From Escherichia coli (GTDB taxonomy: Bacteria > Pseudomonadota > Gammaproteobacteria > Enterobacterales > Enterobacteriaceae): a DNA stretch of 64,000 bases. Position 1 is the first letter of the stretch, and the number at the start of each line of letters is the position of its first letter. Position numbers: made by a program. The stretch lies in NCBI RefSeq assembly GCF_045037415.1, contig NZ_CP173438.1; one strand, 5' to 3'. Below are positions 39,301-42,300 of the stretch, one piece after another.

Positions 39301-42300
39301 CTCAACTGTCCGTTGCTGTCACGCCAGGCATTATGCCCGCCAATTTGACATAGCCAAAGTTGGCTTGAACGCTCCTGTTCAGTTACAGGATCGATATAGC
39401 GCGTTTCACCCGCACGATCGTTCAGACGCGTAACAAAAAGAGTGTTAGCGGCTGCCAGGTTGGCGACGTAACTGCCAGCGTCGGGTCGCAGGACGGGGGT
39501 AGGCGTTTCTGTTGATTCTGAAGTGACATTGGAAAAAAATCACTCTCTACCATTGTATATTTTTGCAATGGGGGCTTTAGTGCCATTTGTTGTAATAGAA
39601 CTTTTTTATATCAATGTTACCTTGTCGAATAGCAACTGCATAACTTCCATCAGCCACAGTTTCAAGTACCACATAATCTAAATTAATATATGCTTTATTC
39701 CCATTAGCATAAGTACCATAGCTATTAATACCATTAGTTGTTATGGAACCACCATTCATTTTTAAATCAGCACGGCTAATAACTTCGTAACTGTTAGAAT
39801 CACAAACTTCATCATCTACAGCATCGACACATGTTCGAGACTCTCCAGGACTTGAACATGCAAGAACTCCTACTGCATTTTCCCCATAGGTAACAATGTT
39901 CGTTTTATCTGTGGTTTCAAGACTGGTGTTATTTTCCACAGTCCCAGAATCATTAACCTGACTTAAAAATCCCGCTGAATATGCCCCCTCGTCTCGACTG
40001 AATTATCACCATTCATAACGATGGTGCCACCAAATTCACTGACTACTGCGCTGGCTGTTATCCCTCCATTTTCTTTGTCAGATACGCTTCCAGAGGTCTT
40101 AATATTGCTATCGCTTATATATAATACTTTGTTTTGGCTATCAACAGAAATACCATAAGATCCATCACCACTAGTCATCACACTGGCATTATTTATATAT
40201 CCAGTTACACCGTCATCCACTTTCACAGCATGGCTTTCGTCTTAAGTGATTAGATACTCTCCATTACTTGTAGAAGTATTATTTTTGATTTCAATCGGTG
40301 ATTCTTCATCGGTTATATAGGAAATTACACTATAATTATCCAACAATTGTGTTACCCACCGCCAGAGCAATAAGTCCTAAACTGAACCCGGGGAGTTTTT
40401 TCAGTTTCATAGATTAACCATCCATTCATTGGATTAACAAATATTCCTGATAAAATAACCTATGAGTTCAGATCACCAAAACGGAGGGCAAAGATAAAAA
40501 CAAAAGCACAATAAATTTAAATAGATAAACAGCGACAATATTTAAATGATAAATAAGTCAGCATTATCATTTTTAGCTTATTTTCATGACATTGATCACT
40601 TTGGGGTAACTATTTTGTTTAACAAATAACTCTTCGACATCAAAATTATCAACAGTTGCCATAGAAATTATTTCACTGATATATAAAACAACTGTGATAA
40701 CACCAGGGTTGACAACTATTTGCACAATAATTCCTTTCCTTCAATGATCCAGGGGTTCACTGCCAGCAACCCATTCAGCCGCATACTGACAGTGAGAAAC
40801 TGAAAGATTAGTGCTGATCCCTGTGGCTGACGAGTCTTTCCCTTAATCGATTAACCAGATTGATCGCCAGCCAAACAAGGGCATTAAGCAAATTTATCGT
40901 CACAAGCACTTCTCCCAGCCCGGTGCTGGGTTTTGCAATAAGGATGACCAGGAGAGTGATCAACATAAATGCAATGGAAAAGATGATATAGAGAGTGAAA
41001 TAATCCAGATTATTACTATTGTTCATGCTACTAATGGCAATCCAGTCAAAACTTTCAAACAATTATAGCAAACAAAAGAATGAACAATAGTAACAAGAGG
41101 CAACGAGCTAATTAGCTGTCTATAATTACACCGTACCATGGCCTTACTGATCAATTTTCACTCAACCACAACCTTCACCTTCGGTTTAGAAAGGATAATT
41201 TTGACCAGGTCGATGTATGTAACAGGTTTATAGAAATAATAACCCTGCTGAAATGTAATATTATTTTGGTTCAGATAGTCAAGTTGTTCTTTCGTTTCGA
41301 CACCTTCAGCGACGATACTGATCGAAAGTTTACGCGCCAGATCCAATACACAATCCAGAATTCGGGTTGATTCTGGGTCTGCGTTGACGCGGCCAACGAA
41401 ACTGTGATCAATTTTTATATAATCAATATGCAGGTCATGCAGATAAGAAAGCCCTGAGTAACCAGTACCGAAATCATCCAGCGCGATGACAAAACCATTT
41501 TCATGCAGAATGTTCAACCGCTGAACCAGACTTTCATCAACATTTAATGGTTCACGCTCGGTGACTTCCAGAACAAGGTTTAAATCGCGGCGGGTAAAAC
41601 TGTCACGGTAATTTAAGCACTCGTCGACAAACGTCGGCGAAACAATATGCGAGGCGCTAAAATTAATCCCAATATGAAAACCTTCCGGCAGTTTACTCGC
41701 GATAGCGTTCATCTGGGTGGCAACCTGATTCATCAGGCTTTGCGTAAGCGGAACGATTAATCCGCATTTTTCAGCAAGTGGAATAAATGCCGCAGGTGAT
41801 ATATATCCACCGTGAGGTTGTTTCCAGCGGGCTAACACCTCAACTCCCCGCAATGTCCCTTCCCGACCATTTACCACAGGTTGGTAAAAAGGGACGATCT
41901 CCCCATTATTTATAGCCCGTCGCAGGATCTCTTCAGGCGTTGCGCTTTTATTGAAATACCTATCAAGAAGGAAGGCAGCGGCGCAGGCGATTAACAGAAT
42001 AAATATCAAAATCCCAAAGCCTTTATCGATAAGTCTGTAGAAGCTAAAGAGACGTTCATTCGCTCGCGCTGGGGTCTACAGATAGCATGGTAGAGAGCAT
42101 CACAAATATCCACGCCGAAGATAAAATTTTCTCCAACTTCATCTAACCTATTAATTATTTAGAACAATGTAGGCAGAATTAAACAAATTAGGCGGGATAT
42201 CAGGCGTCAAGAATGGAAAACGAGCGCTCTCCATTCCTGTTTGCCCTCTGATATTGCGGATATATTAAGAAAGCATAACGCCTGAAATGCTCACTTTGCA

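Follow-up and report, generated by a model that had tools for sequence, protein, structure and literature searches.

What becomes of a phosphodiesterase gene once the part that encodes its sensor has been lost, and does the remainder still specify an enzyme? The question is raised by pdeG (ycgG) in a 64,000-nucleotide stretch of the Escherichia coli contig NZ_CP173438.1 (assembly GCF_045037415.1), here called the window. PdeG is one of the five redox-gated CSS-domain cyclic di-GMP (c-di-GMP) phosphodiesterases in E. coli. The best explanation of the window sequence, to which we assign a probability of roughly 85%, is that it carries the ycgG2 allele, which arose through one old 668-bp deletion and would encode a phosphodiesterase that starts at a TTG codon, consists of most of the second transmembrane helix (TM2) and the EAL domain, and is no longer switched by a sensor.

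The allele itself is already known, being the published ycgG2, c1610 or truncated YcgG of phylogroup B2 extraintestinal pathogenic E. coli (ExPEC). Its first description is credited to Povolotsky & Hengge 2016 by PMC6385356, and the phylogroup statements rest on papers later than that one. What is added here is the frequency of the allele among complete genomes, the precise ends of the deletion, the demonstration from outgroups that the long form came first, the existence of the TTG codon before the deletion, and hints of lineage-specific decay.

The remaining reading frame

The ycgG2 open reading frame (ORF) lies at 41158..42009 on the minus strand, with 283 codons plus a stop in the ORF listing and a TTG start at 42009..42007. 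The encoded part corresponds to PdeG residues 225-507 in K-12 numbering, and the translation begins MIFILLIACAAAFLLDRYF. Annotation of an identical sequence type 131 (ST131) chromosome and of K-12, together with alignment, places the gene after ymgC and before ymgF, within the ycgZ-ymgA-ariR-ymgC / bluF-bluR neighborhood. An earlier note on this DNA had described an intact 283-residue EAL frame running from a membrane helix onward, an upstream frame that reaches a stop before any start codon, and a setting among ymgC, ariR, ymgA, ycgZ, bluF and bluR, and all three descriptions hold. In the frame 5' of the TTG, a stop is followed by TPARANERLFSFYRLIDKGFGI, with no ATG, GTG or TTG between that stop and the TTG start, and 14 further PdeG-like codons (LFSFYRLIDKGFGI) directly precede the TTG. 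The full extent of pdeG-homologous DNA is somewhat longer than the ORF, at 41158..42051 (minus strand, codons 211-507); with K-12 PdeG as the tblastn query, only residues 211-507 align, to window positions 42051..41158.

The sole Pfam domain of the window protein is EAL (PF00563), which spans ORF residues 27-262 (41224..41931, minus strand) with a score of 227.6 bits against a cut-off of 31.3 bits (E=1.8e-67) and covers profile positions 2-236 of 236. K-12 PdeG, in contrast, carries both a CSS-motif domain and EAL; the profile PF12792 of the CSS-motif domain, the periplasmic domain with two conserved cysteines, matches K-12 PdeG at residues 31-217 and has no match in the window protein. Read from the translation, the EAL motifs EVLAR, N (in GINFS), EVTE, DDFGTG, KID, EGVE and QQG are all kept. 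The metal-binding and catalytic residues that mark the competent EAL class (E of EXLXR, N, EXXE, DD, K, E of EGVE, and Q) are thus present, and Table 1 of PMC3484386 gives the same catalytic residue pattern as conserved for c1610.

The earlier description of the membrane helix as kept needs some qualification, as a hydrophobic helix is present but TM2 is not whole. The TM2 remnant (41965..42009, minus strand) consists of 15 hydrophobic residues, M-IFILLIACAAAFLL, followed by DRYFNK, and the Kyte-Doolittle mean across the first 15 residues of the window protein is 3.06. The hydrophobic stretch kept after the initiator is MIFILLIACAAAFLL, the corresponding K-12 context is GFGILIFILLIACAAAFLLDRYF, and TM2 of the window protein is about 3-4 residues shorter at its N-terminal end than K-12 TM2. 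The two-helix architecture of CSS-domain phosphodiesterases is accordingly gone, with the first transmembrane helix (TM1) deleted and 15 hydrophobic residues of TM2 left. By analogy with the paralogue PdeC, this shortened 15-residue segment is a putative membrane anchor and dimerization helix.

Within the remaining part, the window protein differs from K-12 PdeG by S306C, R322T, I347V, F358Y and Y474N. Two of these, F358Y and Y474N, are usually listed as substitutions of the truncated protein. In the alleles compared here they are peculiarities of K-12, with Y358 found in every sampled allele other than K-12 and N474 present even in the K-12-like strain BS15R-A.

The deletion, its age and the leader reading frame

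Alignment with full-length pdeG, which the earlier note had proposed as the way to define the loss, gives one clean 668-bp gap relative to the K-12 pdeG region. When refined against the closest full-length alleles (CE10, 181.1 and STN0717-11), the junction reads ...GAATGAACGT / CTCTTTAGC... on the gene strand, at 42052/42051 (minus strand), with a microhomology of 1 nt (C). The lost DNA comprises 38 bp of the 5' leader and exactly codons 1-210 of pdeG, which means that the gene lost its native ribosome-binding site and ATG along with TM1 and the entire periplasmic CSS domain. The periplasmic sensor region is indeed missing, as the earlier note had claimed. No start codon that would restore it lies upstream in frame, and a blastn search of the whole window for the deleted 668 bp found no trace of CSS-coding DNA elsewhere.

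A 120-bp probe across the junction found it, exact, in 919 of 5426 complete E. coli genomes (~17%). The 668-bp segment encoding the CSS domain is present in 3926 of these genomes and the locus in about 5060. The exact 283-residue window protein is encoded on at least 1000 public contigs, and over 2 kb the window matches ST131-type genomes, SA186 and MNCRE44 among them, at 100% identity. The truncation is a deterministic difference in the sequence and no statistical signal. The proposal that an error of assembly or sequencing produced it, or that only this isolate carries it, has no point in its favor and practically no chance of being right; it is refuted by the recurrence of the same junction in 919 independently assembled complete genomes and of the exact protein on those contigs.

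NC101 and the type strain JCM 5491 (JCM5491) carry the identical junction as well. Because it is base-for-base equal in the ST131, NC101 and JCM 5491 lineages, which differ at 14 sites of the ORF, the comparison indicates a single old deletion event that was inherited through the B2 lineage.

The direction of change was read from an outgroup scan with one genome per species. Full-length CSS-EAL orthologues were found in E. whittamii, Escherichia sp. E1V33, the divergent 'E. coli' SCPM-O-B-8794 (86% identity) and Kluyvera genomosp. 3, and the segment missing in the window is present in all four loci. Since these four outgroup loci are all full length, the short form of pdeG is, on this alignment evidence, the derived one. 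The reverse history, in which the short form came first and K-12 owes its long CSS-EAL gene to the insertion or fusion of a sensor module, had been raised as a caveat in the earlier note; beyond that caveat it can draw on the abundance of the short form (919 genomes) and nothing else. Against it stand not only the full-length outgroups, which rule it out, but also the retention of codons 211-224, at the boundary of the periplasmic region and TM2, without a start codon, which makes sense only as a remnant, and the existence of four paralogous CSS-EAL proteins in E. coli (PMC5897775). We regard that history as vanishingly improbable. For the Kluyvera genomosp. 3 orthologue (CP022114.1), the best-matching segment is reported at 84% identity, which puts it roughly on a level with orthologues from other Escherichia species. 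Such similarity would not be expected across genera, and horizontal transfer may account for it.

The TTG at which the window ORF begins is the codon for Leu225 of the full-length protein. It is TTG in six of eight sampled full-length E. coli alleles (CE10, 181.1, STN0717-11, DEC5B O55:H7, FDAARGOS_1268 and 20KM2222) and in all three outgroup Escherichia, with TTA in K-12-like alleles only. Judged from this distribution, the TTG start is older than the deletion and was not created afterwards, which is a correction to the published account.

Upstream of the junction, the earlier note had reported a short unrelated ORF. The ORF is real, but it is native and not a by-product of the deletion, as it is conserved upstream of full-length pdeG. 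It spans 42056..42142 on the minus strand (read from 42142 to 42056) and encodes, over 28 codons by alignment and translation, MKLEKILSSAWIFVMLSTMLSVDPSASE followed by a stop. The same frame is kept in E. coli, E. whittamii, E1V33 and SCPM-O-B-8794 with the pattern MxxKIxSxAWIFxxLSxMLxVxAxxSE and a stop. The deletion breakpoint falls 4 nt past the stop of this leader ORF, and the spacing from stop to start is thus nearly native, at 46 nt to the TTG in the window and 42 nt to the pdeG ATG in K-12. Across loci the leader ORF is hydrophobic and 26-28 codons long. It is seen at about 2203-2283 of one locus (L002) and upstream of pdeG in three others (L003-L005), and is partly recognizable in Kluyvera, and the DNA further upstream cannot be aligned between species. 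The ORF has no annotation in K-12, and its peptide matches no NCBIfam family. An Rfam scan of 41000-43800 returned no known RNA element in the leader, with a single sub-threshold chance match (CrcZ, 17.6 bits, where the gathering score is 95). From its conservation, the ORF could be a leader peptide, a regulatory upstream ORF or an unannotated small membrane protein.

These two features can be joined in one account, in which the leader ORF would be a real regulatory small ORF that still controls the remnant, and the internal TTG would give rise to a minor TM2-plus-EAL isoform in full-length strains that became constitutive after the deletion. We consider this combined account doubtful, and give it little credence.

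Working gene or decaying remnant

In the sequence of events that we favor, a single illegitimate event long ago, with 1 nt of microhomology, deleted 668 bp. It removed the leader end, the ATG, TM1 and the CSS redox-sensor domain, and fused the upstream region with its conserved leader ORF to pdeG codon 211. The sequence and PMC6385356 together show that translation can restart at the TTG, formerly Leu225 inside TM2, to give a product of 283 residues and 32 kDa. This product would be a c-di-GMP phosphodiesterase with most of TM2 and a catalytically complete EAL domain. By analogy with its paralogue PdeC, it would not be switched by the periplasmic disulfide and DegP-DegQ mechanism of CSS-domain phosphodiesterases, and, because it would not respond to the periplasmic redox state, its effect would be governed by how strongly it is expressed and how stable it is. 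The earlier suggestion that the truncation may alter c-di-GMP signaling is upheld as a possibility.

Published experiments bear directly on this reading. Zlatkov & Uhlin 2019 (PMC6385356) described ycgG2 in neonatal meningitis-associated E. coli (NMEC) and other B2 ExPEC as a gene of 283 codons with a TTG start and a 32-kDa product, obtained the product by in vitro translation from its own TTG and confirmed its identity by mass spectrometry, used a V. cholerae colony assay to show phosphodiesterase activity, and found that knockout in IHE3034 affected S-fimbriae and the CitT-dependent use of ferric citrate and citrate. In CFT073, deletion of c1610 raised FimA and adherence, and a heterologous phosphodiesterase complemented the loss (Spurbeck et al. 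2012, PMC3484386). Cimdins-Ahne et al. 2023 (PMC10459773) compared two truncated variants with the K-12 protein, reported the truncation in all ST131, and found the B-11870-type variant to be well produced and to repress the rdar (red, dry and rough) morphotype. Truncated YcgG is also covered in PMC10333796, and a review and an ST131 preprint repeat its description.

Several observations nevertheless weigh against a functional gene. In the identical stretch of SA186, the Prokaryotic Genome Annotation Pipeline (PGAP) labels the gene a cyclic diguanylate phosphodiesterase pseudogene, 'incomplete, missing N-terminus'. The TTG is a weak start whose sole Shine-Dalgarno-like element, AAAGG, is about 10 nt away, and the promoter scan revealed no convincing sigma-70 promoter between ymgC and the ycgG2 ORF: within 41950-42650 it returned three promoter-like sites, against 2.3 expected by chance, not one of them in a good position on the gene strand. 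The scan gave no terminator either. According to PMC10459773 and PMC6385356, pdeG is hardly expressed in K-12, and the published activities of the truncated protein conflict, being below full length in PMC6385356 versus higher production and a stronger effect in PMC10459773. Non-synonymous changes are enriched on the truncated branches, at 8:8 (non-synonymous to synonymous) versus 9:35 among eight full-length alleles (Fisher P=0.049), and G460D in the NC101/JCM 5491 lineage turns the conserved EGVE into EDVE. In strain 5132 a larger deletion removes the TTG and TM2, and in some ST131 genomes the insertion sequence (IS) IS1 sits exactly at the ycgG2 TTG.

Much of this would be expected if the remnant were a non-functional pseudogene that lacks a start, a ribosome-binding site, TM1 and a sensor, is not meaningfully expressed and is slowly decaying. 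The annotation, the weak TTG in its poor Shine-Dalgarno context with no promoter-like site nearby, the non-synonymous excess and the secondary deletion and IS insertions all speak for that explanation. The frame is, however, neither broken nor short of a usable start: 283 codons are open from the TTG, which was used in vitro (PMC6385356), and the knockout phenotypes of CFT073 and IHE3034 and the heterologous complementation (PMC3484386, PMC6385356) speak against an inert remnant. The reading frame is intact in three diverged truncated alleles, and in every examined truncated allele that keeps the TTG, despite 16 derived substitutions. These comprise eight synonymous and eight non-synonymous changes, the latter below neutral expectation (P=0.019, with small numbers and a lineage-dependent pattern). 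The ST131 allele of the window keeps all catalytic motifs, and changes private to the ST131 lineage are mostly synonymous (2 non-synonymous versus 5-6 synonymous). Taken together, we judge the pseudogene explanation unlikely, though it is the one that deserves most attention among the alternatives, and prefer the reading of ycgG2 as a working, sensor-less phosphodiesterase.

Constraint on the remnant looks relaxed rather than absent from these substitution patterns, and it may differ between lineages. The truncated lineage of NC101 and JCM 5491 has five private non-synonymous changes (S348L, E437A, G460D, L467F and V504I) versus one synonymous change, and may be losing activity while the ST131 allele is conserved.

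The locus and its surroundings show further rearrangements. In strain 5132 (NZ_CP123231.1), which has a B2-type background, the deletion corresponds to about 41950-42170 of the window and reaches from a point 5' of the leader ORF to just past TM2, with the junction ...AATTCTGCCT / ATAAAAGCGC..., and the leader ORF is also lost; this may be secondary decay of ycgG2. In the ST131-like AF4 (NZ_OZ547143.1), IS1 lies at the equivalent of window positions 42007-42015 with a 9-bp target duplication, GGGATTTTG, leaving the ORF intact and the upstream region replaced by the IS1 end, which may either silence the gene or drive it from an IS-borne promoter. IS1 at the TTG was seen in several genomes otherwise identical to the window (matches H1-H3 and H5 of a 2-kb search), and another genome (match H4) has an ISVsa5 element within the same 2-kb stretch. 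In CE10, an IS3 element adjoins pdeG and ymgC is absent from that position. The bluF (ycgF) gene is an intact ORF at 43792..45081 on the plus strand of the window; in the otherwise identical SA186 it is split by an IS3-family element (locus L001, 6126-7571). The region appears to be a hotspot of IS activity. On the other side of ycgG2, several short autotransporter-like ORFs at 38904..40226 (minus strand) make up a fragmented ycgH autotransporter pseudogene, which in SA186 is annotated as a frameshifted partial beta-barrel domain and hypothetical proteins and which is a pseudogene in K-12 too.

If ycgG2 acts as proposed, loss of the sensor in the B2/ExPEC lineage, including pandemic ST131, would uncouple one c-di-GMP sink from the periplasmic redox state, and published work ties this loss to fimbrial expression, adherence, and citrate and iron metabolism. 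There is also a value for annotation, in that a PGAP pseudogene label is attached to an allele with published activity and knockout phenotypes. The additions made here refine that annotation and open no new question.

Comparison with known systems

The closest counterparts are the published alleles themselves. Like the window allele, ycgG2 of IHE3034, c1610 of CFT073, and the YcgG of B-11870 and of all ST131 occupy the same ymgC-ymgF locus, have lost the CSS domain and consist of a 283-residue ORF with a TTG start; the ycgG2, c1610 and B-11870 alleles share S306C, F358Y and Y474N with it. The differences are allelic only: the ST131 allele of the window has none of the changes E437A, L467F and V504I that are published for B-11870, nor S348L and G460D, found in NC101 and JCM 5491; R322T and I347V are its private changes.

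Other truncations of pdeG likewise lack the CSS sensor and keep the EAL-coding part, namely the Tob1 type (PMC10459773) and those of SL124, BS15R-A and 5132. Their breakpoints and mechanisms differ, which makes them independent or secondary events. In SL124 and BS15R-A the CSS domain was lost by other routes, through IS1-mediated deletions; both are IS1-flanked, stand in K-12-like TTA backgrounds and have lost neighbors as well (bluF to ymgC in SL124, ariR and ymgC in BS15R-A). Strain 5132 differs in that the leader ORF, the TTG and TM2 are also gone. Loss of the CSS domain from pdeG has thus occurred repeatedly by separate routes, including the IS1 deletions and the Tob1 type. A 285-residue cluster entry considered as a Tob1-type allele was rejected, as it is a partial record of the normal sequence.

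In architecture, the nearest parallel is found in the paralogue PdeC (YjcC). In PdeC, the oxidized CSS domain restrains activity (Herbst et al. 2018, PMC5897775), and DegP/DegQ cut the reduced-CSS form to release a fragment of TM2 and EAL that stays in the membrane as a highly active dimer; by itself, the EAL domain has no activity (PMC5897775). This fragment has the same sensor-less arrangement of TM2 and a cytoplasmic EAL domain as ycgG2. The PdeC fragment, however, is a product of regulated proteolysis, whereas ycgG2 results from a permanent genomic deletion and has a TM2 shortened by about 3-4 residues. PdeH/YhjH and the NMEC protein SfaY are also single-domain, sensor-less EAL proteins, with output set mainly by expression (comparison in PMC6385356), but they are soluble and have their own promoters and canonical starts, whereas ycgG2 descends from a membrane-bound sensor phosphodiesterase and has kept a hydrophobic N-terminus. 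Classified from its alignment and domain content, ycgG2 is a member of the CSS-domain phosphodiesterase family by descent, and no longer by architecture.

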